A DNA stretch of 64,000 nucleotides from Minisyncoccota bacterium (GTDB lineage Bacteria > Patescibacteriota > Minisyncoccia > JAHISW01 > Tagabacteraceae). Location of the stretch: positions 9,397-73,396 of the forward strand of contig JAQTSC010000003.1 in the NCBI GenBank assembly GCA_028711505.1, in the 5' to 3' direction. The notes below the pieces were generated by a model. It was not told where the DNA came from and did not search any database. It was given only the letters and a program-made list of their open reading frames with translations. Position numbers and translations under genes: made by a program. The first letter of the stretch is position 1; every line of letters starts with the position of its first letter. Of the stretch, positions 7,933-49,330 are shown piece after piece.

Positions 7933-7937
7933 TCAAT

Positions 7938-10240: not shown

Positions 10241-10671
10241 GAAAAAACACAAAAGTAGTTGATCCGCGTTTTTCCAAAGGTAAAGGGGACTATGAGAAAG
10301 TTATTTTTTCCATAGAAAAAGAAGGTAAATGTCCTTTTTGTCCTGACAATTTCAGATACCACAAACATCCAGTTCTTAAGAGAAGAGGAGATTGGTTTAT
10401 AACCAAATCAAGCTGGCCTTATCTAAATGCCAGATTGCATTTGGTTTTAATAAAGAACTCTCATAAAGAAAGTGTCAGAGAATTGAATGTCAACGACATG
10501 AAAGACATCTTATTTTTAGTAAAATGGGCGTCGGGGGAGTTCAAAATAAGCGGTGGTGGATTAGCCATGCGTTTTGGGAAAACGGCGCATACAGGAGCGA
10601 CTGTTTGTCATATACATGCTCATCTTATTGTTCCTAAAAGAAGGAAAAGCGTTTCGTTTCCTATTGGATAG
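10237..10671 (+). CDS. HIT-family (histidine triad) nucleotide hydrolase/transferase with CxxC zinc motif
   Basis: CPFCPDNF zinc-binding motif (as in GalT/Ap4A phosphorylase branch) and HIT motif CHIHAHLIV near C-terminus; start overlaps upstream stop (ATGA). Confidence 0.5.
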   Translation: MRKNTKVVDPRFSKGKGDYEKVIFSIEKEGKCPFCPDNFRYHKHPVLKRRGDWFITKSSWPYLNARLHLVLIKNSHKESVRELNVNDMKDILFLVKWASGEFKISGGGLAMRFGKTAHTGATVCHIHAHLIVPKRRKSVSFPIG

Positions 10672-10672
10672 A

Positions 10673-10710
10673 AAAATCCTTACCCCCTAGGGGGTAAGGA
10701 TTTTATTTTA
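10673..10710. terminator. Bidirectional terminator between convergent genes
   Basis: aaaaatccttaccccctagggggtaaggatttt perfect hairpin flanked by A/T runs. Confidence 0.55.
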
Positions 10711-11530
10711 CTTGTATGATCTTTATTTTTTTTGCTTTCAGCATTTCCAAGCCGTTTAAAGAAGCATGTTCGGTTTGGAAATAAAGCCGTTGGATTCCGG
10801 AAAAAGAAACTGGCTTCGCGCACATAGGGCAAGGAAATATCAGACTATACATTGATACTCCTTGCGTTTTTATACCTTTGGCTGCAGCCACGGCTATTAT
10901 TTTTTGCTCAGCATGAAGCGATGAGGCAATATGGCTGTCTTTTCCTGCTTCAATGAAATCTCGCGGATCTCCCAAGGAATAAGGAGTGAATTCAGACGGC
11001 AAGTGCTCGTTGTGGCCTTTAACCAGTATTTTACCATTCTTGACGAAAGCGGCAGCGGTTCTTCTCCACCAACAAGAACTTTTTTCTGCTTCCTTTTTCA
11101 GTTCCGCCATTATTTCTCGGTCTCTTTTTCGGCAGGATACCAGATCGCAGCTTACTTCTGCTGAAGAGTTTACATTTTCGCTGCTCCACATGAGAAAAGT
11201 TGTGTCGTGCTCTATTTTGTTTGTCTTAGAGAGGTATCTTTCTGCAACCATAGAAGAAACAGTGTCTGTTGCCGTTATCACTTTCTTTCCGTTTATACCA
11301 GCCGCGATTTTTGGAGTGAGCACCTCGATTTTTTTGAAGGAAATTGATTCAATAATTTTTTTCATCAAAGCCGGATTAACTTGCCTGATCTCTTTGTGAA
11401 GAGTTAAAAATTCTTGAATCAGTTCATCCCCTACGATGAAAATTGTTTCGGCGCCAGCTGAGTGTCTTTTAAAGAATTCTATATATCCATTATGCAGAAC
11501 AGGCACATAAAGAAGGATGATCTTTTTCAT
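10703..11530 (-). CDS. Two-domain protein: unknown N-terminal about 150-aa domain fused to C-terminal dCMP/CMP deaminase zinc domain
   Basis: C-terminal HAEQKIIAVAAAKG...PCPMCAKPV matches cytidine/deoxycytidylate deaminase H-A-E / P-C-x-x-C zinc site; N-terminal half unrecognised. Confidence 0.55.
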   Translation of the reverse strand: MKKIILLYVPVLHNGYIEFFKRHSAGAETIFIVGDELIQEFLTLHKEIRQVNPALMKKIIESISFKKIEVLTPKIAAGINGKKVITATDTVSSMVAERYLSKTNKIEHDTTFLMWSSENVNSSAEVSCDLVSCRKRDREIMAELKKEAEKSSCWWRRTAAAFVKNGKILVKGHNEHLPSEFTPYSLGDPRDFIEAGKDSHIASSLHAEQKIIAVAAAKGIKTQGVSMYSLIFPCPMCAKPVSFSGIQRLYFQTEHASLNGLEMLKAKKIKIIQVK

Positions 11531-11540
11531 GCCCGACTCC

Positions 11541-12086
11541 TTAAACCTTGAGGTTTGTCAAAAAAGACTCAATGTGTTTTTTAAGGGTGTCTTGAATTTT
11601 CATCGAGGTTGAAGTGCTTTTTGCTTGTCTTTCCAACACGACTACTTCTTTGCAGAATTGCCGGATATCATCCAGCTGCTTCTGTGGGTAACTTTCTTCT
11701 TCTGCCACAAAAATGTCAGGTTGAATTTCTTTGATAAGTTGATATTTCCATTCTCCTTTTTCGTCTATATCATCTACCAGAGTGATTAGGTCAATGCAGT
11801 GCTGATAACTTAACATCTCCATCCTTTCGCTTTGAGGAATGACCGGTCTTAGAGGACCTTTGTAAAGTTTGACGGCCCTGTCCGTGTCCGCGCCCACAAG
11901 CAAGACATCACCTTGCTTTTTTGCTTCTATCAAATATCTAAGATGTCCGATGTGAAGCATGTCCCATGTGCCAATCGTGATTACCACTTTATAACCGAGA
12001 GTGTCTTTGAGAGTTTGGGTTAGTGTTTTTAATTTGTTAATGTCCAATACTATTTTCTTTTCCGCCGTATCTCTAAAAATTTCCAT
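11541..12086 (-). CDS. Cytidylyltransferase-like Rossmann nucleotidyltransferase (TagD/RfaE domain II-like)
   Basis: GTWDMLHIGHLRYL (HxGH motif) and VGADTDRAV...RPVIPQSER pattern of the cytidylyltransferase-like family. Confidence 0.5.
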   Translation of the reverse strand: MEIFRDTAEKKIVLDINKLKTLTQTLKDTLGYKVVITIGTWDMLHIGHLRYLIEAKKQGDVLLVGADTDRAVKLYKGPLRPVIPQSERMEMLSYQHCIDLITLVDDIDEKGEWKYQLIKEIQPDIFVAEEESYPQKQLDDIRQFCKEVVVLERQAKSTSTSMKIQDTLKKHIESFLTNLKV

Positions 12087-12168
12087 AGCCTATCCTCCTT
12101 TTTGCCTTTGTATTCTGGCTGCATACTATCAATTTGTAGGTTTCTAAGTCAAGTATTAGAATAAATCT

Positions 12169-13710
12169 ATGCTTCGGGAAATTTTAAGACAAGAAATAGA
12201 AAAGGCGGTTTTGAAACTCTTTGATAAAAAGGCCGTTTTCAATGTTTCCTGGGACGGAAAATTTTCCGATTATTCTTCCAACGCGGGTTTGTTTCTTGGA
12301 GGAAAAGACGAGGCGGAGAAATTGAAAGATGAACTTGCCAAATCGAAAGAAATTGAAGAACTTTTTTCAGAAATAAAAGTGGCCGGAAACGGTTTTATTA
12401 ATTTTCGGCTTTCGGAAAAAGGAATTGAAGATGGATTGAAATTCGCGTTGAAAGAAAAATTTGATTTTTTGAAAAGTGAAAAAATTCAGGTGGAATTCAT
12501 TTCCGCGAACCCGACAGGCCCTCTTACTTTGGGAAACGGACGGGGCGGAGTTTTTGGCGATGTCTTAGGAAATGTTTTTAAAAAAGCCGGCGCCGAAGTC
12601 GTCAAAGAATATTATATAAACAACGCGGGAAATCAGATAGAAATTTTGGGCCATTCTGTTCTGAAAGACGACAAGGCTGAGTATAAAGGCGAATATATAG
12701 ATGAACTTGGTAAAAAATTAGGAGGCGAAGAGCCCCTGGAAGTCGGCAAAAAAGCCGCGGACATAATTTTGGAAAGCATCAAAAAAACCGTTTCCGAAAT
12801 GGGGATTGATTTTGATGTCTGGTTTTCGGAGAGCAAAGAGCTTCGAGAAACCGGGAAAGTTGAAGAAATAATGAGGTGGCTTAAAGAAAAAGATTTGGCT
12901 TATGAAAAGGACGATGCTTTATGGTTTCGGGCGACAAAATTCGGGGACAGCGAAGACAGGGTTTTAATCAAAACTGGCGGCGAACCGACTTATTTCGGCG
13001 TTGATTGCGCTTATCATAAAAATAAATTTGAGGAACGGAAATTTGACCGTGTTATAAACATTTGGGGCGCAGATCATCATGGCGATGTCAAGCGCGTAAA
13101 AGGATTCATTGATGCGCTGGGGCATAAAGACAAATTTGAAATAATTTTAATGCAGTTCGTCAGGCTTTTTCAAAACGGCGCTGCTGCGCGGATGTCAAAA
13201 AGGGAAGGAGTATATGTTTTAGTTGACGATGTTCTAAAAGAAATCGGCAAAGACGCTTTCAGGTATTTTATGCTCACGCGTTCTCCTGACACGCACATGG
13301 ATTTCGATTTGGAGCTTGCAAAAGAGCAGTCAAAGAAAAACCCCGTTTATTATATCCAGTACGCCGGCGCGAGGATGAGCAATATTTTAAAAAAATCGGA
13401 GGCCGGACTTAAAAACGAAAAAATTGAAATTCAAAATTTAACAGAACCGCAGGAAAGGAGATTATTGCTGAAGCTTATCCAATTCCCGGAAATGATTGAG
13501 AGTGTTTCAAGGGATTATCAGGTTCATCGGTTGACTACTTATATATATGAACTTGCCGCCGCTTTTACCGATTTTTACGAAAATGTCCGCGTGCTTGAAG
13601 CGGAAGGAGATGAGCTAAAAAACTCTCGATTGTTGTTGGTTTCCGTTTCTAGACGTCTTTTGGAACAAGTGTTAGGATTACTTGGAATTTCGGCGCCGGA
13701 AAAAATGTAG
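12169..13710 (+). CDS. argS: Arginyl-tRNA synthetase
   Basis: FISANPTGPLTLGNGRG class I HIGH-region variant typical of ArgRS; 513 aa. Confidence 0.9.
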   Translation: MLREILRQEIEKAVLKLFDKKAVFNVSWDGKFSDYSSNAGLFLGGKDEAEKLKDELAKSKEIEELFSEIKVAGNGFINFRLSEKGIEDGLKFALKEKFDFLKSEKIQVEFISANPTGPLTLGNGRGGVFGDVLGNVFKKAGAEVVKEYYINNAGNQIEILGHSVLKDDKAEYKGEYIDELGKKLGGEEPLEVGKKAADIILESIKKTVSEMGIDFDVWFSESKELRETGKVEEIMRWLKEKDLAYEKDDALWFRATKFGDSEDRVLIKTGGEPTYFGVDCAYHKNKFEERKFDRVINIWGADHHGDVKRVKGFIDALGHKDKFEIILMQFVRLFQNGAAARMSKREGVYVLVDDVLKEIGKDAFRYFMLTRSPDTHMDFDLELAKEQSKKNPVYYIQYAGARMSNILKKSEAGLKNEKIEIQNLTEPQERRLLLKLIQFPEMIESVSRDYQVHRLTTYIYELAAAFTDFYENVRVLEAEGDELKNSRLLLVSVSRRLLEQVLGLLGISAPEKM

Positions 13711-14121: not shown

Positions 14122-17100
14122 ATGGATTTACCCGAAAGAGAGCAAAAGATTTTGGAGTTTTGGGAGAAGAACCTGATTTTTGAAAAAACGCTTCGCAAAG
14201 AAGCGGTTAATGGCGATTTTGTTTTTTATGAAGGACCTCCGACTGCCAATGGCAAGCCGGGCATTCATCATATTGAAGCGCGCTCTTTTAAAGATTTGAT
14301 ACCTCGCTACAAAACAATGAGGGGTTTTCGTGTTTTGAGAAAAGCCGGCTGGGACACCCATGGCCTTCCGGTGGAGCTTGAAGTCGAGAAAAAATTAGGG
14401 CTTAAAAGTAAAAAAGACATTGAAGAATATGGAATAGAAAAATTCAATCAAAAATGCAAAGAAAGCGTCTGGGAGTATAAAGACGAATGGGAAAAAATAA
14501 CAAAACGAATCGGATTTTGGGTTGATTTGGAAAATCCGTACATCACTTATGAGACGGATTATATAGAAACGCTTTGGTGGATTATAAAACAGGCGGATGA
14601 GAAAGGATTTTTGTACAAAGGACACAAGGTGGTGCCAAATTGCCCGCGTTGCGGCACGGCGCTTTCTTCTCATGAAGTCGCGCAGGGGTATAAAAATGTA
14701 AGCGAAGAATCGGTCTATGCGAGATTTAAAATCAAAGGCAAAGAAAATGATTATATTTTGGCGTGGACAACGACTCCTTGGACATTGCCGGGAAACGTGG
14801 CTCTTGCGGTTGGAAGCAATATTGAGTACGTAAAAATTAAAAATAAAGATGCCGGAGATAATTTAATTTTAGCGAAGGAACGATTGGCTGCTATTGATGG
14901 CGAATACGAAATTTTGGAAGAATTGAAAGGCGCTGACCTCGTCGGTCTTGAATACGAACCTCTTTTCTCGGGCGCGATCCCCGAAAATACGCCGAATTTT
15001 GAAAAAGCTTTTAAAGTTTATTCTGCTGATTTTGTTTCAACCGAAGATGGCATCGGTGTGGTGCACACCGCGGTAATGTATGGGATAGACGATTATGAAC
15101 TCGGAGAAAAAATTGGGCTTCCGAAATTTCACACGGTTAATTCTGACGGAACTTTCAATGAAAGCGTGCCGAAGTGGAAAGGAAAATTTGTAAAAGACAC
15201 TGACAAAGAAATTATTTCCGATTTGGAATCTCGCGGATTTTTGTTTAAAACCGAAAATTATTCTCATGATTATCCTTTTTGCTGGAGATGCGGAACTCCG
15301 CTTCTTTACTACGCCAAAGACTCGTGGTTTTTCAAGATGAGCGGACTTCGCGACGAGCTTGTAAAAAATAACGAAAAAATAAACTGGATCCCCGGACATA
15401 TTAAAGAAGGAAGGTTTGGCGAGTGGCTAAAAGACGCGAAAGACTGGGCAATATCCCGAGAAAGATATTGGGGAACTCCGATGCCGGTTTGGGAATGCGA
15501 AAAGTGCGGCAAAAGAAAGATAGCGGGTTCAATAGATGAAATCCGCGAAGAGTTCGGAAACCCGAATAAAATTTTTCTGGTGCGGCATGGAGAAGCGGAA
15601 ACTACGCTGAAGGGAGTTGGAAATTCAATGCCAGAAACGGAGAAGTACCCACTTACGGGAAAAGGGAGGGATCAAATTAAAGAATTAGCAAAAATCTTAA
15701 AGGATGAAAAAATAAATTTTATTTATGCTTCGCCGATTTTAAGGACAAAAGAAACAGCGGAAATAATAGCGGACAAGCTTGGGCTTGAAATTATTTTTGA
15801 CGAACGGCTAAGAGAAACAGGGCTTGGAGAATTCAATAACAAAAAAATTGAAGAGCTTCATAGTATTTATCCGACGAAAGAATCTCGCGCGGGCGAAACC
15901 GTACGCGGAGTTGAAAGCGGAAGAGACGTGAGGAAAAGATTTGAAGAATTTTTAAGCGAAATAAATCAAAAACACAAAAACAAAAATATTGCGGTTGTTT
16001 CTCATGGCGACCCGCTTCAGATTTTTTACGGCCTTTGCCGCGGCGAAGATTTAATGGATTCGTTTCGCGGCTGGTATCCGAAAAAAGGTGAGACGAAAAT
16101 AGTTTATTCAAAACCCGTTGATTTGCACAGGCCTTTTATAGATGAAGTGAAATTGAAATGCGAATGCGGAGCGGATATGAAAAGAGCGGCGGAGGTTATG
16201 GATTGCTGGTTTGATTCCGGGTCAATGCCGTTTGCTCAGGTTCATTATCCTTTTGAAAATAAAGGATTGGTTGATGATAAAAAACTTTTTCCCGCGGACT
16301 TCATTTCCGAAGCCATAGACCAGACGCGCGGATGGTTTTACACTTTGCTCGCGGTTTCCACGATGCTCGGCTTTAAAGAGCCATACAAAAACGCTATTTG
16401 CCTCGGGCATGTTCTTGATAAAAACGGGCAAAAAATGAGCAAAAGCAAGGGGAACGTCGTAAATCCCTGGGAAATGATAGACAAATACGGAGCTGACAGC
16501 GTGAGGTGGTATCTTTACACCGTAAACCAACCCGGAGAGCAGAAGCGTTTTGATGAAAATGACCTGAAGCTTTCAAAGAGGATGTTTACGACGCTTTTTA
16601 ATGTTTTGTCTTTTTACAAAATGTTTTCAGCGGCTGGGCAGCCGGAAAAAATTGGAGTGGAAGAACCGGCGCACGTTTTGGACAAATGGATTTTAAATTA
16701 TCTGGCGAAAACAGAAATTGAGATAACCGATCTTTTGGAAAAATACGATATAACCTCCAGCGCTCGAAAAATTGAAGCGTTTATAAACGATTTGTCTGTT
16801 TGGTATTTAAGACGTTCTCGTGAAAGATTTAAGGGGGAAGACGAAAAAGATAAAGCCGCCGCCCAAAAAACGCTTGGTGAGGTTTTGCTTTCAGTTTCAA
16901 AACTTCTGGCTCCCTTCGCGCCATTTTCCGCGGAGGCTGTTTATAAAGAACTTTGCGAAGAAAAAGAATCGGTTCATTTGGAAAATTGGACAAAGGCTGA
17001 CGAAGAATACGATGAAAAAATTTTGGAAGAAATGGCAAGGGTCAGAAATGACGTTTCAGTCGGTTTGGACTTGCGGCTTAAATCTGGAATAAAAGTGCGC

Positions 17101-17484
17101 CAGCCGCTTTCATCTTTTGAAACGCCGAATAAATTTGGCGCCGAATTTTCCGCGTTGATAAAAGACGAGCTTAATGTAAAAGAAATAAAATTCGGCAAGG
17201 AATATAAAATTGATGCAAGAATTACCGACGAGCTGAAAAAAGAGGGGATGTTAAGGGAAATAACCCGCGCGATACAGGATTTGCGCAAAAAAGCCGGGTT
17301 TGTTCAATCTGACAAAATTATTTTGGCGGTTGATACGGATGCCGGAGGCAAAGATTTTATGAGCGGGTTTGAAGAAAAGATAAAATCCGCGACCAATTTG
17401 TCGGAAATAAAATTTGTTTCTTTTGAAGAAGGCGAAAAATTTGAAGTAGGCGAATCAAGCTTCAGGATAAAAATCGAAAAATAA
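14122..17484 (+). CDS. ileS: Isoleucyl-tRNA synthetase carrying an inserted histidine-phosphatase (PGAM-like) domain
   Basis: PPTANGKPGIHHIEARSF HIGH motif, KMSKSKGN motif, editing domain, anticodon-binding region. An extra domain with LVRHGEAE...SPILRTKETAEII...DERLRETGLGEF...VVSHGDPL lies between the WECEKCG zinc knuckle and the CWFDSGSMPF motif. Confidence 0.95.
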   Translation: MDLPEREQKILEFWEKNLIFEKTLRKEAVNGDFVFYEGPPTANGKPGIHHIEARSFKDLIPRYKTMRGFRVLRKAGWDTHGLPVELEVEKKLGLKSKKDIEEYGIEKFNQKCKESVWEYKDEWEKITKRIGFWVDLENPYITYETDYIETLWWIIKQADEKGFLYKGHKVVPNCPRCGTALSSHEVAQGYKNVSEESVYARFKIKGKENDYILAWTTTPWTLPGNVALAVGSNIEYVKIKNKDAGDNLILAKERLAAIDGEYEILEELKGADLVGLEYEPLFSGAIPENTPNFEKAFKVYSADFVSTEDGIGVVHTAVMYGIDDYELGEKIGLPKFHTVNSDGTFNESVPKWKGKFVKDTDKEIISDLESRGFLFKTENYSHDYPFCWRCGTPLLYYAKDSWFFKMSGLRDELVKNNEKINWIPGHIKEGRFGEWLKDAKDWAISRERYWGTPMPVWECEKCGKRKIAGSIDEIREEFGNPNKIFLVRHGEAETTLKGVGNSMPETEKYPLTGKGRDQIKELAKILKDEKINFIYASPILRTKETAEIIADKLGLEIIFDERLRETGLGEFNNKKIEELHSIYPTKESRAGETVRGVESGRDVRKRFEEFLSEINQKHKNKNIAVVSHGDPLQIFYGLCRGEDLMDSFRGWYPKKGETKIVYSKPVDLHRPFIDEVKLKCECGADMKRAAEVMDCWFDSGSMPFAQVHYPFENKGLVDDKKLFPADFISEAIDQTRGWFYTLLAVSTMLGFKEPYKNAICLGHVLDKNGQKMSKSKGNVVNPWEMIDKYGADSVRWYLYTVNQPGEQKRFDENDLKLSKRMFTTLFNVLSFYKMFSAAGQPEKIGVEEPAHVLDKWILNYLAKTEIEITDLLEKYDITSSARKIEAFINDLSVWYLRRSRERFKGEDEKDKAAAQKTLGEVLLSVSKLLAPFAPFSAEAVYKELCEEKESVHLENWTKADEEYDEKILEEMARVRNDVSVGLDLRLKSGIKVRQPLSSFETPNKFGAEFSALIKDELNVKEIKFGKEYKIDARITDELKKEGMLREITRAIQDLRKKAGFVQSDKIILAVDTDAGGKDFMSGFEEKIKSATNLSEIKFVSFEEGEKFEVGESSFRIKIEK

Positions 17485-31984: not shown

Positions 31985-32230
31985 ATGAACACATCGCAAA
32001 TTTATATCGCCATAGCAATCGCGGCATTGGCGATAATCGCAATTGTTCTTTTTGTGGTCAGAAAAAACAAGCCGCGCGAAAAGCTTTCCACACTTGGCGC
32101 TTTCGCGCTTCTTTTGGTTATAGCGGGGATTGTATTTGGCGATAGCCAGCCGATTGGCTATGGTCTAATGACTGTTGGCGGAATTTTGGCCGCGATTGAT
32201 ATTGTAAGAAAATTGAGAAAACATGAGTAA
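31985..32230 (+). CDS. Small two-TM membrane protein
   Basis: 81 aa, two hydrophobic helices. Confidence 0.3.
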   Translation: MNTSQIYIAIAIAALAIIAIVLFVVRKNKPREKLSTLGAFALLLVIAGIVFGDSQPIGYGLMTVGGILAAIDIVRKLRKHE

Positions 32231-32675
32231 TAAATACGAAGGACAAATTGAAGTTGTTGGCTCTCCAATTATCGTTAATCGCAGAGGGGAAATTTTACTT
32301 ATCAAATCTTATAAATGGGGTGATAAATATCTTATTCCTGGGGGACATGCGGAAGTGGGGGAAATGATTTTTGAAACGGCAAAACGCGAGGGCGAGGAAG
32401 AGACAGGATTAAAACTTGAACCACAGTTTTGTGTGAATATCGGAGAACTAATCTATGACCCGGATTTTTACAGAAAAGCGCACCTTGTGTATTTTCATAT
32501 TGTTTGCAATGCTCTTACTGATGATATAAGGCTTGACGAGAAAGAGTTGAAAGAATTTATTTGGATTGAGCCAAAAAAAGCGTTGGATTTGGCACTTACC
32601 AAGGGAGTTAAAAAGTCTTTAGAGAACTATATTAATGGAATTCGGATAGATATAAATTCTTTTGTTAACGATTAA
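32223..32675 (+). CDS. NUDIX hydrolase
   Basis: Nudix box GGHAEVGEMIFETAKREGEEETGL (GX5EX7REUXEEXGU). Confidence 0.8.
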   Translation: MSNKYEGQIEVVGSPIIVNRRGEILLIKSYKWGDKYLIPGGHAEVGEMIFETAKREGEEETGLKLEPQFCVNIGELIYDPDFYRKAHLVYFHIVCNALTDDIRLDEKELKEFIWIEPKKALDLALTKGVKKSLENYINGIRIDINSFVND

Positions 32676-37006: not shown

Positions 37007-37474
37007 ATGAGAATTGCCACACTTTGTTTTTTGATGGACGGCGATAAAATTCTTCTTGCAAAGAAAAAGCGCGGTTTTGGTGTCGGAAAATGGAATGGGG
37101 TCGGGGGAAAAATGCAGGAGGAAGAAACGATTGAACAGGCGGTTTTAAGGGAAGCGAAAGAAGAAATCGGCATCGATTCTTGCGAAGACCGCCTTGAAAA
37201 AGCCGGAAGCATAAAATTTTATTTTAACGGCAAGGAAGATTGGAATCAGGAAGTGCATATTTACGCGCTGAAAAAATGGGAAGGCGAACCGCAGGAATCT
37301 GAAGAAATGAGTCCGAAATGGTTTTTTCATCACGAGATGCCTTTTGACGAAATGTGGGCTGACGACAGACATTGGATGCCCTACTTTCTTTCGGGTAAAA
37401 GATTTGAAGGGGAGTTTTATTTTACTGAAGATGGAAGCGTGATTGAAAAATTTGACATAAGGGAAATTTTTTGA
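37007..37474 (+). CDS. NUDIX hydrolase (MutT-like)
   Basis: Nudix box GGKMQEEETIEQAVLREAKEEIGI. Confidence 0.8.
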   Translation: MRIATLCFLMDGDKILLAKKKRGFGVGKWNGVGGKMQEEETIEQAVLREAKEEIGIDSCEDRLEKAGSIKFYFNGKEDWNQEVHIYALKKWEGEPQESEEMSPKWFFHHEMPFDEMWADDRHWMPYFLSGKRFEGEFYFTEDGSVIEKFDIREIF

Positions 37475-38577: not shown

Positions 38578-38651
38578 GGGCCATTAGCTTAGTGGCAGAG
38601 CACCCGGTTTGCATCCGGGAGACGGGAGTTCGATTCTCCCATGGTCCACCA
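38578..38651 (+). tRNA. tRNA-Ala (anticodon TGC), CCA encoded
   Basis: Acceptor gggccat/atggtcc with G3:U70, D-arm agcttagtggcagagc, anticodon stem cccgg/ccggg with loop ttTGCat, T-arm gggag-ttcgatt-ctccc, terminal acca. Confidence 0.8.
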
Positions 38652-40852: not shown

Positions 40853-40913
40853 TCACCATGCGAGCGAAAGACCCCTTTTAGGGGTCTTTTTTTTGTGGTA
40901 ATTTATAAAAATA

Positions 40914-43766
40914 ATGCCGTATAACCATAAAAAAGTTGAAAAAAAATGGGCGGAGTTTTGGAAGGAAAACAAAACTTTTACTCCGGATTTAAATAAGGCG
41001 AAAAATCCTTTTTACGCCCTTTTTATGTTCCCGTATCCTTCGGCCGAAGGACTTCATATCGGAAATTTTTACGCTTTTACCTGTGTTGACGTGGTGGCGA
41101 AGTACAAAAAACTTCGCGGTTTTGACGTGTTTGAGCCTATTGGATTTGACGCTTTCGGTATCCATTCGGAAAACTACGCGCTTAAAATCGGCGAAAGGCC
41201 GAGAAAAATGCTTGATCGGACGGAAGAAAATTTCAGAAAGCAATTGATGTCTTCCGGTATTGGCTGTGATTGGACGCGTGAAGTTGATACCACTTTGCCG
41301 GAATACTACAAATGGACGCAATGGATTTTTACAAAACTTTTTGAGCGAGGTTTGGCTGTGCAAAAAGAAGCGTTTTTGAATTGGTGCCCCGGTTGTAAAA
41401 CTGTTTTGGCCGACGAACAGATTGTTAATGGAGTTTGTGAAAGATGCAAGTCGGTTCCGCAAAAGAAAATGATGAAGCAATGGTTTTTCAAAATAACCGA
41501 TTTTTCGGAGCGGCTTTTAACGGGGCTTGAAAATATGGATTGGAGCGAAATAACAAAATCGGCTCAGAAAAATTGGATTGGAAAATCGGAAGGAGCGGAA
41601 GTGGAATTTGAAATAAGCGGAGAAAAAGTAAAAGTTTTTACAACGCGGCCGGATACGCTTTTTGGCGCGACTTATTTTGTTCTTTCGCCGGAGCATTCGA
41701 TTGTTAAAAAAATAACGACTGATTCGCAAAAAAGCGAAGTTGAAAAATATATTAAAGAAGCGGGGTCTAAATCGGATTTGTTAAGGACGGAATCAAAAGA
41801 AAAAACGGGAGTTTTTACCGGAGCTTTTGCCGTAAATCCGGTAAATGGAGAAAAAATTCCGGTTTGGATAGCGGATTACGTTCTCATGGGTTATGGCACC
41901 GGCGCCATAATGGCCGTGCCGGCTCACGATGAACGCGACTTTGAGTTCGCGAAAAAATACGGGCTGGAAATAAAACAGGTTGTAGCCCCGGCTGTTTTTG
42001 ACCATGAAAATCCTCCGCAAGAAGGAAAAGAAAATACAAAAAGAAATATTGTTCATGTTCTTGTTAAGCATCCAAAAGAAGACAAGATTTTATTTTTGCG
42101 GTGGAAAACTCAGCCATGGAAAACGCCGATTACTGGCGGCATTGAAGAAGGCGAAGATGAAATTGCCGCAGCCAGGCGGGAAGTTTATGAAGAAACCGGA
42201 TACAAAAATCTTGAATTTGTAAAAAAACTTCCGTATCTCATTTCCGCCAAATTTTATGCTGCGCACAAAGACTTGAACAGGCAAACGTTAGCCCGCGTTA
42301 TAATGTTTAAACTTTTGGATTTGGAACAGGATGAAATTTCTGAGGAAGAAAAGAGAGACCATGATGCGGAGTGGATGGACATAAAAGATGTTGCTGATTT
42401 ATCTCCTGTTTCAGAAATGCCGCATATTGTTGATTGGCTAAATAACGGAGATAAAATTTTTGAAGGCGACGGCATAAACATAAATTCTGATTTTCTTGAC
42501 GGAATTGCCACAGACAAAGCGAAAGAAAAAATAATCGCATGGCTTGAGGAAAAAGGAATCGGTAAAAAGATGATAAATTACAAACTTCGCGACTGGTGCA
42601 TTTCGCGTCAAAGATATTGGGGACCGCCAATACCTATTATATATTGCGAAAAATGTGGTTCGACTGGCTCACCACAGGCTATGGTTGTGCCGGAAAAGGA
42701 TTTGCCGGTTTTGCTTCCTGACCTTAAAACCGGATGGGAGCCGTCCGGAGATGGTAAAGGGCCGCTTTCAAAAGTTTCTGAATTTATAAATGTTAAATGT
42801 CCGAAATGCGGGGGAGAAGCAAAAAGGGAAACCGATGTGATGGATAATTTTTTGGATTCGGCATGGTATTTTTTCCGTTATCTTTCGCCCGAAAAAGAAA
42901 ATAGAATTTTTGACGAAGCGATTGGCAAAAGATGGCTTCCCGTTGATATCTATATCGGAGGAAACGAGCACGCGGTGCTTCATCTTATGTATACCAGATT
43001 TATAACTATGGTTTTTCACGACCTTGGTCTTGTTGGTTTTGACAATCCTTTCAAGCGGTTCCGCGCGAACGGAATGATCTTGAAAGACGGGGCGAAGATG
43101 AGCAAGTCAAAAGGCAACGTTATTAATCCGGAGGAGTATGGAGAAAAAATCGGTTATGATGCCCTGAAATCTTATATTCTCTTTTTGGGCCCCATGAGCG
43201 AAGACAGGTCTTTTTCAGATGAGGGTGTTTTGGGAACGATGCGCTGGGTGGAAAGAATTTCTCGCCTTGAGGAAAAAGTTAAAGATGGGGCAAAAGACGG
43301 AAAGGAAATTGAGGCGAAATTGAATAAAATCGTAAAACAGGTATCCGATGATTTTGAAGATCAGAAATATAATACGGCGGTCGCCAAGCTCATGGAACTC
43401 ACTAATGTTTTATCGTCTGTAAAAGAATTTTCAAAAGAAACATGGCTAAAATTTTTGGGTATAATCGCGCCGTTCTTGCCGGCGCTTGCCGAAGAAATGT
43501 GGTCAAAATCGGGGAAAGACAAATCTATTTTTAGCGGCAAAAATTGGCCGGAATATGACCCAAAAATGGCTGAAGAAAACGAAGTTGAAATAGCTGTTCA
43601 GATAAACGGGAAATTCAGAGGTAGCGTAAAAGTTGCGAGAAGCGCCGGTCGTGAAGAAGTTGAAAAATTGGCTTTAATGGATGAACGTTTGGCAAAATAT
43701 ATAGGTCCTGAGAAACCGGGAAAGGTGATTTTTGTGAAAGATAAATTGGTGAATTTTGTTAAATAA
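40914..43766 (+). CDS. leuS: Leucyl-tRNA synthetase carrying an inserted NUDIX hydrolase domain
   Basis: HIGH (PYPSAEGLHIGNF), editing-domain motifs (TTRPDTLFGATY, AVPAHDERDFEFA), KMSKS. Between the editing domain and the downstream catalytic half lies an about 150-aa block with a perfect Nudix box GGIEEGEDEIAAARREVYEETGY; 950 aa. Confidence 0.95.
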   Translation: MPYNHKKVEKKWAEFWKENKTFTPDLNKAKNPFYALFMFPYPSAEGLHIGNFYAFTCVDVVAKYKKLRGFDVFEPIGFDAFGIHSENYALKIGERPRKMLDRTEENFRKQLMSSGIGCDWTREVDTTLPEYYKWTQWIFTKLFERGLAVQKEAFLNWCPGCKTVLADEQIVNGVCERCKSVPQKKMMKQWFFKITDFSERLLTGLENMDWSEITKSAQKNWIGKSEGAEVEFEISGEKVKVFTTRPDTLFGATYFVLSPEHSIVKKITTDSQKSEVEKYIKEAGSKSDLLRTESKEKTGVFTGAFAVNPVNGEKIPVWIADYVLMGYGTGAIMAVPAHDERDFEFAKKYGLEIKQVVAPAVFDHENPPQEGKENTKRNIVHVLVKHPKEDKILFLRWKTQPWKTPITGGIEEGEDEIAAARREVYEETGYKNLEFVKKLPYLISAKFYAAHKDLNRQTLARVIMFKLLDLEQDEISEEEKRDHDAEWMDIKDVADLSPVSEMPHIVDWLNNGDKIFEGDGININSDFLDGIATDKAKEKIIAWLEEKGIGKKMINYKLRDWCISRQRYWGPPIPIIYCEKCGSTGSPQAMVVPEKDLPVLLPDLKTGWEPSGDGKGPLSKVSEFINVKCPKCGGEAKRETDVMDNFLDSAWYFFRYLSPEKENRIFDEAIGKRWLPVDIYIGGNEHAVLHLMYTRFITMVFHDLGLVGFDNPFKRFRANGMILKDGAKMSKSKGNVINPEEYGEKIGYDALKSYILFLGPMSEDRSFSDEGVLGTMRWVERISRLEEKVKDGAKDGKEIEAKLNKIVKQVSDDFEDQKYNTAVAKLMELTNVLSSVKEFSKETWLKFLGIIAPFLPALAEEMWSKSGKDKSIFSGKNWPEYDPKMAEENEVEIAVQINGKFRGSVKVARSAGREEVEKLALMDERLAKYIGPEKPGKVIFVKDKLVNFVK

Positions 43767-43775: not shown

Positions 43776-44843
43776 TTGACCCGTTTTCTATACTATGGTA
43801 CATTACAAGATATGAAAAATACGGTTTCTTTCAACCCAATTTTAGTAACAAAAAAACTTTTAAACGGTCTTGACGAGAGACCGAGAGATGTTTTGGAAAA
43901 AAGGTTCGGTCTTTATGGAACCGGCGTAAAAACACTTGAGTCCATTGGCGGCGTTTACGGCATCACGAGAGAAAGAGTTCGGCAAATAGAAGCTTTTGCT
44001 TTGGACAAAATCAGACAGTCAAAAGATTTCTCTTCTTTTGGCGACGTCTTTGACGAATTAAAAAATCACATAGACACTGAAGGCGGGCTTGTTCAGGAAG
44101 AACATTTTCTTACGAGCAGAGCCAAACAGGATGACCATAAAAATCACATTCTTTTCCTTTTGGTTGTGGGAGAACCCTTTGAAAAAATAAAAGAAGATGA
44201 TCACTTCTATCATTCCTGGACAACCGATATGGAAAAAGCGGAAGCGATAATGAAATCTTTAAGGCGTTTTCACTCCGAATTTGACCAGAAGAAAGTTCTT
44301 TCGGAAAAAGAAATGCTTTTTGCCTTGGAGAAGAGACTAAAAGACGCCGCTCAGCATGAATTTGAGGAAAACATTCTGCATTCGCTGCTTAAGGTTTCAA
44401 AAATTCTTTCTTCCAACGCTTTAGGCGAGTGGGGCTCGGTTTATTCTTCTTTTATAAAACCCAGGGGAATGAGAGATTTTGCGCTTTTGGTAATGAGGAA
44501 ACACGGGTCTCCCATGCATTTTTCGGAAGTCGCCGGAGCAATAAAAGATATTTTTAAAAAACCGGCGCATGTTCAGACCGTTCATAATGAACTTATAAAA
44601 AATGAAGATAATTTTGTTTTGGTCGGCCGCGGACTTTATGCTTTGAAAGAATGGGGGTATGAAGGAGGAATAGTGCGCGATGTCATAAAAAAAGTTATTT
44701 CACAGAGCGGCCCGCTCGCGAAAGAAGATATCATAAAAAAGGTTTTAAAAGAACGATACGTCAAAGAAAACACAATTTTAGTCAATTTGCAGAATAAAGA
44801 GTTTTTCAAAAGGAACGAAAAGGGTTATTATACCCTTATATGA
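43776..44843 (+). CDS. Sigma-70 region-4 HTH domain protein fused to about 270-aa uncharacterised domain
   Basis: RPRDVLEKRFGL...TLESIGGVYGITRERVRQIEAFALDKIR matches sigma70_r4; stop overlaps next start (ATGA). Confidence 0.5.
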   Translation: MTRFLYYGTLQDMKNTVSFNPILVTKKLLNGLDERPRDVLEKRFGLYGTGVKTLESIGGVYGITRERVRQIEAFALDKIRQSKDFSSFGDVFDELKNHIDTEGGLVQEEHFLTSRAKQDDHKNHILFLLVVGEPFEKIKEDDHFYHSWTTDMEKAEAIMKSLRRFHSEFDQKKVLSEKEMLFALEKRLKDAAQHEFEENILHSLLKVSKILSSNALGEWGSVYSSFIKPRGMRDFALLVMRKHGSPMHFSEVAGAIKDIFKKPAHVQTVHNELIKNEDNFVLVGRGLYALKEWGYEGGIVRDVIKKVISQSGPLAKEDIIKKVLKERYVKENTILVNLQNKEFFKRNEKGYYTLI

Positions 44844-46018
44844 TAAGTATCTGGGAACTTTTTTCTGAAAACTATATTTTCTCCAATTTTTTATCGTGGC
44901 TTTTAAGCCTCTGGTTTGTTTGGCTGCCGGCGGGTCTTGCTTTTGCCTTTTGGGAATTATGGCTCAACGCGATAAGAAAGAAATTTTTGAGGAATATGCA
45001 ATGCGTTCTTCTCGAGATAAAAGTTCCGAGGGATATAATCAAAAGTCCCAAAGCCATGGAAACCGTTTTGAATTCTTTATATACGACTTTTGCCGGAAAC
45101 TGGTGGGCGAGATCAATAAAAGGCTATTTGCCGACTTATTACAGTCTGGAAATGGTCGGAATAAACGGCTCTGTCCATTTTTTCATTTATACCCAGAAAG
45201 GTTTTAGAAATCTTGTAGAATCGCAAATCTATTCTCAGTATCCGGACGCTGAAATATCCGAAGTCTCGGACTATTCTTACGCTTCTGATTTTGAAAACAG
45301 GGAAAATTGGAATATGTGGGGCGCGGAACTCGGGCTTACTAAAGAAGATCCTTATCCTTTAAGAACTTATATTGATTTTGACTTGCAGATGCCTCTATTA
45401 AAGGAAGAGCAGAAAGTGAATCCTATCGCTTCTTTTGTGGAATTTTTAGGTTCGCTTAAACAGGGCGAACAAGTATGGATTCAAATTTTGATAAAAGGAG
45501 CTTCGGGAAAAGATTGGATTGAAAAAGCAAAAAAACTTATCGCGAAATTGCTTGAAGAAGCGAAAACGGAATCAGGAGAAAAAAGGCCGTTTTTGACCGA
45601 AGGGGAAAGGGATACGATAAAGGCGATAGAAAAAAATGTTTCCAAGCTTGGATTTGAAACCGGAATAAGAATTATATACATGGCGAAAAAGGAGGTGTTT
45701 AATCAGCTGACCGTACCTTCAATTATCGGACTGTTGAACCAATATAGTTCGCAGACTTTGAACGGATTTAAGCCGGCTAATTCAACCGCCTCAAAACAGC
45801 CGTTTAAACAATTCCGCGAGAACCTAAGAAAGAAAAAAATGCTGAAAGCTTATCAGCCTCGCGGTTATTTTTACCGTCCGAACAAAAGAAAGCATTTTGT
45901 GTTGAACACCGAAGAGCTCGCCACCATCTATCATTTTCCGGGAAGAGTGGCGGAAACTCCGACTTTTGCAAGAGTTGAAACAAAGAAAGGCGAGCCTCCT
46001 GCGGCATTGCCGATTTAA
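44840..46018 (+). CDS. Membrane protein, partner of TraG/VirD4-like ATPase
   Basis: 392 aa; two N-terminal TM helices then soluble domain; translationally coupled to upstream gene. Confidence 0.4.
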   Translation: MISIWELFSENYIFSNFLSWLLSLWFVWLPAGLAFAFWELWLNAIRKKFLRNMQCVLLEIKVPRDIIKSPKAMETVLNSLYTTFAGNWWARSIKGYLPTYYSLEMVGINGSVHFFIYTQKGFRNLVESQIYSQYPDAEISEVSDYSYASDFENRENWNMWGAELGLTKEDPYPLRTYIDFDLQMPLLKEEQKVNPIASFVEFLGSLKQGEQVWIQILIKGASGKDWIEKAKKLIAKLLEEAKTESGEKRPFLTEGERDTIKAIEKNVSKLGFETGIRIIYMAKKEVFNQLTVPSIIGLLNQYSSQTLNGFKPANSTASKQPFKQFRENLRKKKMLKAYQPRGYFYRPNKRKHFVLNTEELATIYHFPGRVAETPTFARVETKKGEPPAALPI

Positions 46019-46066
46019 ACCAGCCATGGCTGCCGGCTTTTAATTTTAATTGACACCAGCTTAAAA

Positions 46067-47842
46067 ATGGAAGATCCCAATAAAGTAACTTATTTCGGGC
46101 GCACTAATTTTCGCAACGCGAAGGTTGATTTTGGCATTAAACAGAAAGACCGCACTAAGCATATGTATGTTATCGGAAAGACCGGTATGGGGAAGACTAC
46201 TCTTCTTGAAAATATGGCTGTTCAAGACATACGGAACGGCGAAGGCATCGCGATAGTTGATCCGCACGGTTCTTTCGCGGAAAAAATGCTGGATTATATT
46301 CCGAAAGAAAGAATAAAAGATGTCATATATTTCAACCCTGCCGATACTGAATTCCCGATAGCTTTTAACATCATGGAAGACGTGGGTCCCGAGCAAAGAT
46401 ATCTTGTGGCGTCCGGGCTTATGGGTGTTTTCAAAAAAATGTGGCCGGATGTCTGGTCCGCGAGAATGGAATATATTTTGAATAACGCCATCTTGGCTCT
46501 TTTGGAATATCCCGATGCCACTCTTCTTGGCGTAAACAGAATGCTTTCTGATAAGGAATATCGCAAAGAGGTGGTCGCGAACATATCGGATCCTGTTGTA
46601 AAAGCGTTTTGGGAGCAGGAATTTGCAAAATATACCGACAGGTTTGCCGCTGAAGCTACTCCCGCGATACAGAATAAAGTGGGTCAATTTACTTCAAATC
46701 CTTTGATAAGAAATATAATCGGCCAGCCGAAATCAAGTTTTGATTTCAGGCGAGTGATGGATGAAAAGAAAATAGTGATAATGAACTTATCAAAAGGGCT
46801 TATCGGAGAGCTTAATTCCCGGCTTATCGGCGCGATGCTCATAACAAAAATTTATCTTGCGGCGATGAGCCGCGCTTCGGCGAACGGCGAGAAACTTCCC
46901 GATTTTTATCTTTATGTCGATGAATTCCAGAATTTTGCCACGGAATCTTTTAAAGATATTCTTTCCGAAGCGAGGAAATACGGACTTGGGCTTATTTTGG
47001 CTCATCAATATATCGCGCAGATGGAAGAAGGCGTTGCGGACGCCGTCTTTGGAAACGTGGGCACACATATAATTTTCAGAGTCGGTCCTGCTGATGCCGA
47101 AGTTCTTGAAAAAGAATTTTCCCCCGATTTTGTGATAGAGGATATCGTGAATTTGGGTTTTGCCAGCATTTATCTCAAGCTCTCGATAGACGGCGTTCCT
47201 TCGCGTCCTTTTTCCGCCGCGACCTTGCCGCCGATAGAAAAACAAAGAGCGTCTTTCCGCGATGAAATTATAGATTTTTCGAGAATAACTTATTGCATCG
47301 CGAAAAAAGATGTTGAAAAAAAGATCATTGAATCTCTTGAACCGATTGAGAATACGGGAAGAAAAGAAGGAAAGACAAACCAGTCGTTTTCGCCTTCTGC
47401 CGTCAAAAACGAAGCAGAAAAAGAAGATAATCTTTCGGGAGGGCCCGAATTGTTTGAGGCGGTTTGCGCGGAATGCGGAAAACGCACGATGGTTCCTTTT
47501 CAGCCCGATGGAAAAAGACCTGTTTATTGTCAAAAACATAGACCGAAAAACGATGTTTCGGCTTTTGATTTCGGCCAACATGACCGCCAAAAAGAAAATA
47601 GGCAAAGAGAGATTAACAGAGAATTTTCCAATGCTTCGACGCCTCCCATGTCTTTGCGTGAACTTTCCGGAAACACTACGGAGTTCAAAAAGAAAATAAA
47701 AAAAACAGAGCCTGATTTTAAGGGGCTTCGAGAGCTTTTGGCGGAAGCCATGGGAAAAGATGTGTCTGGCGCTTCGGCGTCAGCAGATGGGAAAAGAGAT
47801 GATGCTAAAATTATAAAACCCGGAGATAGCGTGAAGTTTTGA
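46067..47842 (+). CDS. TraG/TraD/VirD4-like (FtsK/HerA superfamily) P-loop ATPase with C-terminal zinc ribbon
   Basis: Walker A VIGKTGMGKTTLL, IAIVDPHG, Walker B FYLYVDEFQNFA, LILAHQY; C-terminal CAECGKRTMVPFQPDGKRPVYCQKH followed by low-complexity tail. Confidence 0.65.
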   Translation: MEDPNKVTYFGRTNFRNAKVDFGIKQKDRTKHMYVIGKTGMGKTTLLENMAVQDIRNGEGIAIVDPHGSFAEKMLDYIPKERIKDVIYFNPADTEFPIAFNIMEDVGPEQRYLVASGLMGVFKKMWPDVWSARMEYILNNAILALLEYPDATLLGVNRMLSDKEYRKEVVANISDPVVKAFWEQEFAKYTDRFAAEATPAIQNKVGQFTSNPLIRNIIGQPKSSFDFRRVMDEKKIVIMNLSKGLIGELNSRLIGAMLITKIYLAAMSRASANGEKLPDFYLYVDEFQNFATESFKDILSEARKYGLGLILAHQYIAQMEEGVADAVFGNVGTHIIFRVGPADAEVLEKEFSPDFVIEDIVNLGFASIYLKLSIDGVPSRPFSAATLPPIEKQRASFRDEIIDFSRITYCIAKKDVEKKIIESLEPIENTGRKEGKTNQSFSPSAVKNEAEKEDNLSGGPELFEAVCAECGKRTMVPFQPDGKRPVYCQKHRPKNDVSAFDFGQHDRQKENRQREINREFSNASTPPMSLRELSGNTTEFKKKIKKTEPDFKGLRELLAEAMGKDVSGASASADGKRDDAKIIKPGDSVKF

Positions 47843-47848
47843 TGCGAT

Positions 47849-49330
47849 ATGAAATTTGGGTTTGTTATTTTTTTGTTTTTAGCCGTTCCGCTTTTGGCTT
47901 GCATGCCGCAAGGCGTGGTTTTTGCCGAAAGCGGTATTTTTATTAATGAAATAATGTATGACTTGGAAACGGGAAGCGATGACGGAAGAGAGTGGATTGA
48001 AATTTATAACGGAAGCGGCGTTGAAATTGATTTAAATAATTTCAGAATTTTTGAGGCCGATGTCAGTCATAAAATAATCCCGAAAGAGAAAGGAGAAAGT
48101 CTAATCATTTCATCCGGCGGTTTCGCGGTTGTCGCGGATAACCCCGCAAAATTTTTAATCGATTGGCCCGATTTTGGCGGAATTTTAGGGGACAGCTCTT
48201 TTTCTTTGAGCAACAAGGGAGAAACTCTAATTCTGGAAACTGCCGAACTTATTGATGTGGATAGTTTTGCTTACGCGCCGGAACTTGGCGCAAACGGGGA
48301 TGGAAATTCTCTTCAGAAAAATGGTTTAAACTGGGAGGCTTCATCTCCTACTCCCGGAGACGATAATTCATCGGTGGAACCGATTTCATTACTTGAAGAA
48401 GAGCCGGTTCTTCAGGTGCAGGAAGAAATGGTCAGCGATTCTGCGTTCGTGGCGCTCGTGCCTGAATTTCAGATAAAATCTTACGCGGGGAGCAACAAAA
48501 CGGTTGTTGCCGGAGCGTCCGTTGAATTTCGCGGCAACGGGTACAATGTTGACGGAACCTTACTCCAAAATCCACGCTATCTTTGGAATTTCGGCGATGG
48601 AGAAGTAAAGGACGGGCAAAATATTTTTCATACTTACAGGTATCCGGGAGAATATGTCGCGGCGCTTGATGTTTCTTCTGGCGGCTATTCTAATTTGGAC
48701 ACTCTTTTTGTAAAAGCTCTTCCGAATGAAATTTTCATTTCCGAAATAAAGACAGGAGCGGATTCTTTTGTCGAAATCAGGAATCCGTCAAAAGAAGAAA
48801 TAAATATTTCCGGCTGGCAGATAAAGTCCGGAGTCGATGTTTTTTGTTTCCCTCAGAACAGTTTTATAAGACCTTTAAGTTTTTTGGTCGCGCCTTTGTC
48901 TCTAAAAGAGATTATTTTGCCCGAAGGGAAAGGAAGCGTCAATCTTTTTTATTCAAATGATTACGCGGCGGACAAATTTGAATATAGCGGGAGTTTGGCT
49001 GGCGGGCAAAGTTTTTCCCGACTCTCAAAAGACTCTGCTGTTTTAATGACAAAAGAAACTCCGGGCGCGGAAAATAAACCGGCATCTTCCTTTGCTTCCG
49101 TCGGAGCTGATGGGGATAATCTGCAGGTTGTTTTTCAAAAACAAAAAGAAGCAGCAGCTCCGGAAGAAAAAGAAGAAATTGCTGAAAACGAAAGAGAAAT
49201 TATTTCGGAAAACAACACCGCTGCCGCCGCTATCGCTTCCAAAAAACCGTTTTTTCTCTACTTTTCGCTTGCCGGCGGAATTTCGATTTTAGCGGCTTTG
49301 GGATTTATCGTCATACGCCGCCAAGGTTGA
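47849..49330 (+). CDS. Secreted/surface-anchored protein with two lamin tail domains (LTD)
   Basis: Signal peptide; LTD 1 GIFINEIMYDLETGSDDGREWIEIYNGSGVEIDL; LTD 2 EIFISEIKTGADSFVEIRNPSKEEINISGWQI; C-terminal TM anchor FFLYFSLAGGISILAALGFIVIRRQG. Confidence 0.7.
   Translation: MKFGFVIFLFLAVPLLACMPQGVVFAESGIFINEIMYDLETGSDDGREWIEIYNGSGVEIDLNNFRIFEADVSHKIIPKEKGESLIISSGGFAVVADNPAKFLIDWPDFGGILGDSSFSLSNKGETLILETAELIDVDSFAYAPELGANGDGNSLQKNGLNWEASSPTPGDDNSSVEPISLLEEEPVLQVQEEMVSDSAFVALVPEFQIKSYAGSNKTVVAGASVEFRGNGYNVDGTLLQNPRYLWNFGDGEVKDGQNIFHTYRYPGEYVAALDVSSGGYSNLDTLFVKALPNEIFISEIKTGADSFVEIRNPSKEEINISGWQIKSGVDVFCFPQNSFIRPLSFLVAPLSLKEIILPEGKGSVNLFYSNDYAADKFEYSGSLAGGQSFSRLSKDSAVLMTKETPGAENKPASSFASVGADGDNLQVVFQKQKEAAAPEEKEEIAENEREIISENNTAAAAIASKKPFFLYFSLAGGISILAALGFIVIRRQG

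Follow-up and report, generated by a model that had tools for sequence, protein, structure and literature searches.

A leucyl-tRNA synthetase (LeuRS) gene, leuS, that carries a complete Nudix domain within the CP1 editing domain of its product was analyzed in a 64,000-nucleotide stretch of contig JAQTSC010000003.1 (assembly GCA_028711505.1, Minisyncoccota bacterium), hereafter referred to in full as the window. The gene is a single long open reading frame (ORF) at 40914–43766 on the forward (+) strand, the strand of all features of the gene described below; it spans the whole Nudix region and encodes a complete bacterial-type LeuRS of 950 aa. The protein scored 919.7 bits against TIGR00396, the equivalog model for bacterial LeuRS (cut-off 548.4 bits), was matched by LeuRS of Thermus thermophilus (Tth; structure 1h3n) with an E value of 4e-216, and is identical to NCBI entry MDD5032870.1, which is annotated as "class I tRNA ligase family protein" and derives from a metagenome-assembled genome (MAG) of Candidatus Paceibacterota. 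An earlier note, made from the letters of the window, had proposed a LeuRS with an inserted NUDIX domain, and the profile matches and catalytic residues reported here bear the proposal out. The block that it placed at 41995–42450, one base out of frame, corresponds to aa 359–513 (41988–42452) and comprises a linker strand followed by a full Nudix fold.

The boundaries of this cassette were taken from the alignment to 1h3n, in which residues 3–358 of the window LeuRS pair with Tth 4–363 and residues 514–724 with Tth 375–579. The insert thus stands for the 11-residue loop Tth 364–374, which lies within the CP1 editing domain, a domain that we take to span approximately residues 224–417 of the Tth enzyme. 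Consistent with this position, the Pfam editing-domain profile (PF13603, E 3.9e-65) covers aa 219–358 (41568–41987) with its positions 1–146 of 185 and is broken at position 146 by the insert; the block therefore lies inside the editing domain and not after it, as had first been supposed. The remainder of CP1, aa 514–556 (42453–42581; RDWCISRQRYWG), aligns from Tth 375 on and leads back into the catalytic core, and in a fragmentary relative (P0255) positions 124–185 of the editing profile come after the NUDIX domain. Both junctions are in frame. The NUDIX profile PF00293 matched aa 380–508 (42051–42437) with an E value of 1.4e-14 over profile positions 6–133 of 134, within the region (approximately residues 360–515) where such a match had been expected; the score was 54.7 bits for the whole protein and 57.1 bits for the insert alone, against a gathering cut-off of 21.1 bits, a match well outside the range of chance. 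Structural modeling with AlphaFold likewise returned a confident Nudix insert with the alpha/beta/alpha fold (pLDDT 94.8 and pTM 0.88 for the insert alone). The full-length model (AlphaFold 2; pLDDT 88.5, pTM 0.80) is confident across both junctions, with pLDDT values of 91–96 for aa 360–510.

The Nudix box, GGIEEGEDEIAAARREVYEETGY (aa 408–430, 42135–42203), fits the pattern GX5EX7REUXEEXGU exactly, in line with its earlier description as perfect, and supplies E414, R422, E423, E426, and E427. It is followed by an X-loop region, FYAAHKDLNR (aa 447–456, 42252–42281), in which an aromatic pair at +17/+18 past the box precedes K452, N455, and R456, and by the motif HDAEW (42360–42374; H483 and W487) with E479 just upstream; both were recognized by their conservation in the family. 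A complete Nudix-fold domain of a distinct subfamily, which we designate NUDIX-A, therefore sits in frame in the CP1 loop with all canonical catalytic residues intact.

Conservation of these residues was counted over 192 full-length NUDIX-A domains. Within the box, E427 is present in 100% of the copies, E423 in 99%, E426 in 96%, R422 in 79%, and E414 in 77%; elsewhere, K452 (99%), R377 (97%), W487 (96%), N455 (94%), R456 (89%), E479 (87%), and H483 (80%) are also conserved. An aromatic residue, F or Y, occupies position 447 in approximately 95% of the copies and position 448 in approximately 93%; tyrosine is not universal. Among 145 embedded copies, 106 show the strict E-R-E-E-E pattern, about 8 more are intact but were missed by the regular expression, and about 20 (approximately 14%) belong to a degenerate class with glutamine and a non-arginine residue in the box. 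The catalytic residues are thus retained in approximately 80% of the copies at a mean insert identity of only about 38%, a pattern indicative of selection for catalysis in most lineages, that of the window among them. The degenerate copies form a sub-clade (P0013, P0017, P0023, and P0059, together with the free-standing P0001–P0003) in which the glutamate of GX5E is replaced by Q, the arginine by A, S, T, N, or M, and sometimes a further glutamate by Q; they are probably inactive or retuned.

The host enzyme retains the expected LeuRS elements. Its class I signature reads LHIGN (aa 47–51, 41052–41066), with Asn for the last His of HIGH; in an alignment of 40 close relatives, H48 and G50 are invariant and N51 nearly so, and HIGN in place of HMGH is a variant common to these relatives. 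The set of motifs listed in the earlier note is therefore present except that its "HIGH" is HIGN at aa 48–51. In CP1, the Thr-rich motif FTTRPDT (aa 242–248, 41637–41657) and the motif AVPAHDERD (aa 334–342, 41913–41939), which contains the universal Asp D342, are both found, and T243, T244, T248, and D342 are invariant in the same alignment. The KMSKS loop occupies aa 728–732 (43095–43109), where K728, S730, K731, and S732 are invariant and M729 is nearly invariant, and the anticodon-binding domain occupies aa 797–912 (43302–43649; PF08264, E 2.3e-19). Two zinc-Cys clusters are present as well, ZN-1 with CPGC and CERC and another formed by CEKC and CPKC. No counterpart of the leucine-specific domain, Tth 580–633, was found in the alignment, where residues 724/725 of the window LeuRS map to Tth 579/634 (around 43080); this domain occurs in the T. 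thermophilus and E. coli enzymes and is not a universal part of bacterial LeuRS. Insert-free close relatives are approximately 790–800 aa long, and the additional length, estimated previously at about 100 aa over a typical LeuRS, is a net figure that combines a gain of 155 aa (NUDIX) with the absence of the leucine-specific domain of approximately 55 aa.

The domains follow one another as they do in the canonical bacterial enzymes (T. thermophilus 1H3N/2BYT and the E. coli 4AQ7 family of LeuRS), and the Rossmann core with KMSKS, the ZN-1 cysteines, the Thr-rich motif and universal Asp of CP1, and the anticodon-binding and C-terminal domains are all shared. The window enzyme differs from them in the 155-aa Nudix domain that replaces the loop Tth 364–374, in the absence of the leucine-specific domain, and in HIGN instead of HMGH. 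By these features the window gene encodes a working-looking, complete LeuRS for which aminoacylation activity is predicted. Compared with the leuS product of the syntenic sister described below, the window protein also has six additional residues, STGSPQ (aa 583–588, 42660–42677), beside its zinc motif CEKC; near this site (reference aa ~581) other relatives hold inserts of 45–204 aa. An antisense ORF of 107 aa (42307–42630, reverse strand) overlaps the cassette; it has no support, and AT richness of the coding strand most likely accounts for it.

The same architecture recurs across many genomes. A NUDIX domain is found at the same loop in 34 of the 120 best LeuRS relatives, most of the others having a loop of 7–21 aa there. 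A HMMER scan with the insert over 1.84 billion cluster representatives gave 429 matches at E <= 1e-3; LeuRS flanks were present in 109 of the best 150 of these, and the other 41 comprised 40 shorter proteins without LeuRS flanks and one prolyl-tRNA synthetase (ProRS). A scan of one genome per species returned at least 185 relatives, and we inspected the best 80 loci, 78 of which lie within leuS ORFs of 936–1735 aa. According to the record titles, the host taxa include Paceibacterota, Falkow-, Moran-, Nomura-, Vogel-, Taylor-, Komeili-, Buchanan-, Adler-, and Berkelbacteria, among others. The taxon labels of some MAGs are unreliable, and we suspect that the few loci titled as other taxa are automatic mislabels; the hosts of NUDIX-A are all or nearly all Patescibacteria, to judge from these loci. 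About 72 of 85 copies occupy the main loop (site B), and about 11 occupy a second CP1 site at reference aa ~206–241. Two or three copies per protein were found in ten representatives and five genome loci, for example, three in the 1735-aa ORF at 1205–6409 of locus L019 and more than one at 3164–7840 of L046. Multi-copy LeuRS are also seen in P0125–P0130, P0140, and P0168, with tandem pairs at the second CP1 site and one copy at the main site. The NUDIX insertion is thus a widespread and recurrent feature of Patescibacteria LeuRS.

Full-text literature searches that combined LeuRS or aminoacyl-tRNA synthetase (aaRS) with Nudix, the candidate phyla radiation (CPR), and Patescibacteria did not turn up any account of an architecture that joins LeuRS, or another aaRS, to a Nudix domain, and a 2017 survey of the Nudix clan contains neither "tRNA synthetase" nor "tRNA ligase" (PMC5389931). 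The database names of such proteins are generic ("leucine--tRNA ligase", "class I tRNA ligase family protein"), and "leuS" has been assigned even to free-standing copies. The sequences are already public, but the LeuRS-NUDIX feature is, as far as can be told, undescribed.

Comparison with related genomes identified a syntenic sister without the insert. The closest relative, P0006 (798 aa, contig L090), lacks the NUDIX domain and is encoded in the same gene order as in the window, namely Ddl, EF-P, a sigma factor, a small membrane protein, and leuS, followed by genes for a Sigma70_r4/HARE-HTH protein, a DUF8128 protein, a coupling protein of a type IV secretion system (T4SS), and an LTD protein. 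The two leuS genes are 78.7% identical at the amino acid level and 76.0% identical at the nucleotide level over 795 codons, and L090 has a 12-aa loop, SGGDVTKEPFLG, where the window has aa 357–517. The codon usage of the insert is atypical for the gene. Its GC content at third codon positions (GC3) is also low, at 0.329, below that of all 486 other 155-codon segments of leuS (minimum 0.342, mean 0.413). Around the junctions, no flanking direct or inverted repeats of a mobile element were found, only short A-rich chance repeats, and no intein-like junction residues are visible in the sequence.

The histories of the insert and of its host disagree. The window insert is 51–61% identical to inserts of LeuRS proteins whose core is 50–53% identical to that of the window, and only 32–41% identical to inserts of LeuRS proteins whose core identity is 66–74%, with a Spearman correlation of −0.67 between insert and core identity. 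When identity was followed in 30-aa segments, the switch in affinity was confined to aa 361–510. In bootstrapped neighbor-joining trees based on corrected p-distances, the window insert grouped with eight sequences with distant cores at 97% bootstrap in the insert tree and 0% in the core tree; conversely, the split between this distant clade and the rest had 100% support in the core tree and was never recovered in the insert tree. Free-standing NUDIX-A homologs nest within the embedded clade. Because the insert and host trees conflict in this way, the cassette appears to have moved between LeuRS lineages, and the trees indicate either transfer of the module between LeuRS genes or its repeated capture from a shared pool. 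Rate variation was considered as a cause of the conflict and rejected for the window, given the nesting within the distant-core clade at 97% bootstrap and the sharp switch at aa 361–510. A recent duplication of the window's own NUDIX genes was also rejected: the two free-standing genes pointed out previously, at 32223–32675 and 37007–37474, are genuine (PF00293, E 4e-16 and 8e-19, respectively), with only 21–26% identity to the insert and without the family motifs.

Outside LeuRS, NUDIX-A was encountered in a small number of settings. In locus L086, an intact free-standing copy (4501–4992) lies approximately 580 bp upstream of an insert-free leuS (5571–7994) on the same strand, and in L001, a copy with a degenerate box (10001–10534) lies 3 bp upstream of an insert-bearing leuS (10537–13416), also on the same strand. 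Two of the six free-standing copies examined are thus directly upstream of leuS, and the other four do not adjoin it. The sole other identified host of an embedded copy is an archaeal-type ProRS, a class II synthetase (P0216, 643 aa), in which NUDIX-A occupies aa 398–515 between the anticodon-binding and C-terminal domains. Finally, a 284-aa protein (P0340; 6001–6855 in L083, L084, and L085) corresponds to LeuRS aa 299–530 and consists of half of CP1, the NUDIX domain, and 17 more residues. Its Nudix box is intact and its editing motif is dead (LVPAHIQEH). The protein is very common in gut contigs and metagenomes of the Lachnospirales type (666 index blocks), its gene lies a few kilobases downstream of a serine recombinase gene, and the protein looks like an escaped LeuRS fragment.

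LeuRS is not the only decorated synthetase of this genome. The isoleucyl-tRNA synthetase (IleRS) of the window (14122–17484, forward strand, 1120 aa) carries a PGAM-type His_Phos_1 domain at aa 484–644 (E 5.8e-37) between two stretches of the class I catalytic profile, so the PGAM insert reported earlier for this enzyme is real. The suggestion of a lineage habit of decorating synthetases is supported by this domain, by the other domains found at the same LeuRS loop in relatives (see below), and by the ProRS with the same NUDIX subfamily. The window IleRS and the NCBIfam family NF040702 ("ileS_w_GNAT") resemble LeuRS-NUDIX in being class Ia synthetases with an in-frame small-molecule enzyme domain, and differ from it in the fold of that domain (histidine phosphatase or GNAT), in the host enzyme, and in the site. 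The window LeuRS itself scored 58 bits against NF040702, whose cut-off is 1999, and is not a member. A further parallel, drawn from their published description, is offered by NadM-Nudix fusions, which also join a HIGH-motif Rossmann nucleotidyltransferase to a Nudix hydrolase, and in which the Nudix domain degrades the product, or a relative, of the adenylylation reaction (PMC7824862); in contrast to the window protein, their Nudix domain is terminal and their partner is an NMN adenylyltransferase.

The nearest known relatives of NUDIX-A are the RppH/Ap(n)A-hydrolase group (E. coli RppH, lupin 1F3Y/1JKN, CT771, Aq_158, Ndx1, and NUDT2) and 2AZW. Among solved structures, the best sequence match was lupin Ap4A hydrolase (E 6e-6), and structure comparison placed 2azw, a Nudix protein of Enterococcus faecalis, closest and RppH second. 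NUDIX-A differs from this group in its own motifs (W397, W402, HK..NR, and H..W) and in being embedded in a synthetase. Scores against the RppH families NF001938 and NF001936 were 32.7 and 31.5 bits (cut-offs 116 and 118), so the domain is not filed as RppH, and the score against YtkD, an RNA-deprotection pyrophosphohydrolase (TIGR02705), was 27.4 bits (cut-off 154.4). A tyrosine in the X-loop about 16–18 residues past the Nudix box marks Ap(n)A hydrolases (Dunn 1999, reviewed in PMC5389931); F447–Y448 at +17/+18 agrees with this mark, which is a weak criterion. The conserved basic and aromatic residues R377, K452, N455, R456, H483, and W487 fit a predicted role in binding a polyphosphate chain and a base. 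With a pI of 5.1 (the median of the family is 5.6) and a net charge of −10, the insert is acidic, which fits a small-molecule enzyme rather than an RNA binder.

Taken with the conserved catalytic residues, these relationships lead us to favor, tentatively and at somewhat less than an even chance, the reading that the insert is an active pyrophosphohydrolase on polyphosphate-linked nucleotides, with Ap4A-type compounds as the candidate substrate, that serves LeuRS in a clean-up role. The Nudix domain would act as a Mg2+-dependent enzyme whose substrate contains a chain of phosphates, with dinucleoside polyphosphates such as Ap4A as the most likely class. These form when ATP attacks an enzyme-bound aminoacyl-adenylate, and a synthetase of this design would carry its own clean-up or recycling enzyme, converting Ap4A to ATP and AMP. 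The fusion would fix the stoichiometry of Nudix and LeuRS at 1:1 in a genome with little regulatory capacity, with aminoacylation and editing proceeding as in an ordinary LeuRS. A link to aaRS chemistry, as opposed to random parking, is suggested by the near-exclusive association of NUDIX-A with LeuRS, ProRS, and the neighborhood of leuS. Among the substrates proposed earlier, the Ap4A type stays our best guess, whereas aminoacyl-adenylate is unlikely for chemical reasons: the bond broken by Nudix enzymes is a diphosphate linkage (Srouji 2017, PMC5389931), and an aminoacyl-adenylate, with a single phosphate in an acyl-phosphate bond, has none.

Several observations weigh against an Ap4A-type clean-up role. 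NUDIX-A shares 12–23% identity with any characterized Nudix enzyme, and since this identity is low and the RppH and YtkD scores fall far below their cut-offs, the Ap(n)A assignment draws on weak signals; 2azw, the structure nearest to the domain, is that of a functionally uncharacterized protein. The degenerate sub-clade, with approximately 14% of the copies in addition to P0001–P0003, lacks E414, R422, and sometimes E426, so catalysis appears dispensable in some lineages. The CP1-NUDIX fragment P0340 has no synthetic site, which argues that the enzyme needs no adenylate chemistry in cis. Many close relatives lack any insert, and the unrelated domains found at the same loop fit a permissive parking site as well as they fit functional coupling. 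LeuRS, moreover, is not known to be a strong producer of Ap4A.

In one alternative, the CP1 loop at 358/514 is a structurally permissive socket, where an unrelated housekeeping Nudix domain is parked and, in a tiny genome, constitutively co-expressed with an essential gene while remaining uncoupled from leucylation. The loop is indeed an insertion hot spot: its baseline length ranges from 1 to 68 aa, and at positions equivalent to 41988–42452 other Patescibacteria LeuRS carry a second, unrelated NUDIX domain, a Ser-hydrolase of the alpha/beta type (PF06821), a nucleotidyltransferase (PF10706/PF14907), or domains without a Pfam match (relatives with other cargo: P0019/P0077, P0026/P0033, P0028/P0104/P0050, P0054, P0029/P0071, and P0067/P0085/P0087). 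Insertion sites elsewhere in the protein, the patchy presence of the domain among close relatives, free-standing homologs away from leuS, and a Lachnospirales fragment without a synthetase body are all compatible with parking, and the sub-clade that has lost catalytic residues keeps this explanation alive. A random passenger, however, would be expected in many kinds of host protein, and NUDIX-A is found almost only in LeuRS, in both the cluster representatives and the genome loci; a single protein can hold as many as three copies, the one further host identified is again an aaRS, and separate copies stand directly upstream of leuS in two of six cases. We consider an uncoupled passenger doubtful, at roughly a one-in-four level of belief.

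A different role is conceivable at the acceptor end of the tRNA. CP1 docks the 3′ CCA of tRNA-Leu, with the 5′ end adjacent, and the Nudix domain could strip a blocking group of the pyrophosphate type before charging, for which a 3′-pyrophosphate left by RelA/SpoT-homolog toxins, a 5′-triphosphate, or an Np4N cap would be candidates. In favor of such a role, CP1 contains both of the preferred insertion sites, RppH ranks second among the structural matches, P0340 keeps half of CP1 with its NUDIX domain even though the editing residues are dead, and the other cargo chemistries (nucleotidyltransferase and esterase in LeuRS, His-phosphatase in IleRS) could likewise act on the tRNA 3′ end. On the other hand, the domain has a strongly acidic character and yielded neither a surface nor a motif for RNA binding, the ProRS cassette lies outside an editing domain, no toxin/antitoxin context is found near leuS in the window, and the idea is purely inferential; we regard tRNA-end repair as unlikely. 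In a broader form, CP1 of Patescibacteria class I synthetases would be an evolvable, horizontally exchanged socket for tRNA-acceptor-end enzymes, in which NUDIX-A performs tRNA-end deprotection as a synthetase-borne antitoxin or repair activity and hands tRNA-Leu to the charging site. This reading would explain the variety of cargo and the Lachnospirales CP1-NUDIX fragment, and we give it about one chance in ten.

The domain might instead be a non-catalytic module, that is, a structural, regulatory, or nucleotide-sensing appendage with an influence on how CP1 moves or on the binding of partners. Nudix domains without enzymatic activity have been described (PMC5389931), and the degenerate sub-clade without E414 and R422 includes both embedded and free-standing members. 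The window copy, by contrast, has every catalytic residue, and retention of these residues in most copies despite low overall identity is hard to explain without selection for catalysis, which makes this possibility very improbable. A chimeric assembly or a miscalled ORF, as might be suspected from the MAG origin and the lower GC3 of the insert, is refuted by the recurrence of the architecture, which is present in independent assemblies of at least 78 species genomes and of dozens of metagenomes; the in-frame junctions and the confident model across them also speak against it.

The surroundings of leuS were also inspected. A strong terminator-like hairpin (40866–40890, forward strand) ends 24 nt before the leuS start codon, and a tRNA gene (38578–38648, forward strand) lies upstream of the EF-P gene; apart from these two elements, an Rfam search found no T-box or other regulatory RNA upstream of leuS. 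Conservation of the downstream gene string at 43776–49330 extends to L090 and, in part, to L001 and L086. The string encodes the Sigma70_r4/HARE-HTH protein, a 392-aa protein without a Pfam match whose L090 counterpart is the DUF8128 protein, a T4SS coupling protein of the VirD4/TrwB type that bears a treble-clef zinc finger, and a surface protein of the LTD/PKD kind.

Domain additions to aaRSs are textbook knowledge in eukaryotes and are thought to be rare in bacteria. The enzyme described here is an essential bacterial synthetase whose proofreading domain houses what appears to be a second functional active site, a design shared by at least 78 species that belong to a major uncultured radiation. 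It provides a concrete example of the horizontal transfer of a domain into a core gene of translation, a potential marker for Patescibacteria LeuRS, and a test of how much CP1 tolerates, and the existence of insert-free syntenic sisters constitutes a natural experiment. If the domain degrades alarmones of the Ap4A type, the production and destruction of the signal would be physically tied to tRNA charging; if it instead acts on tRNA ends, it would represent a new kind of tRNA repair.

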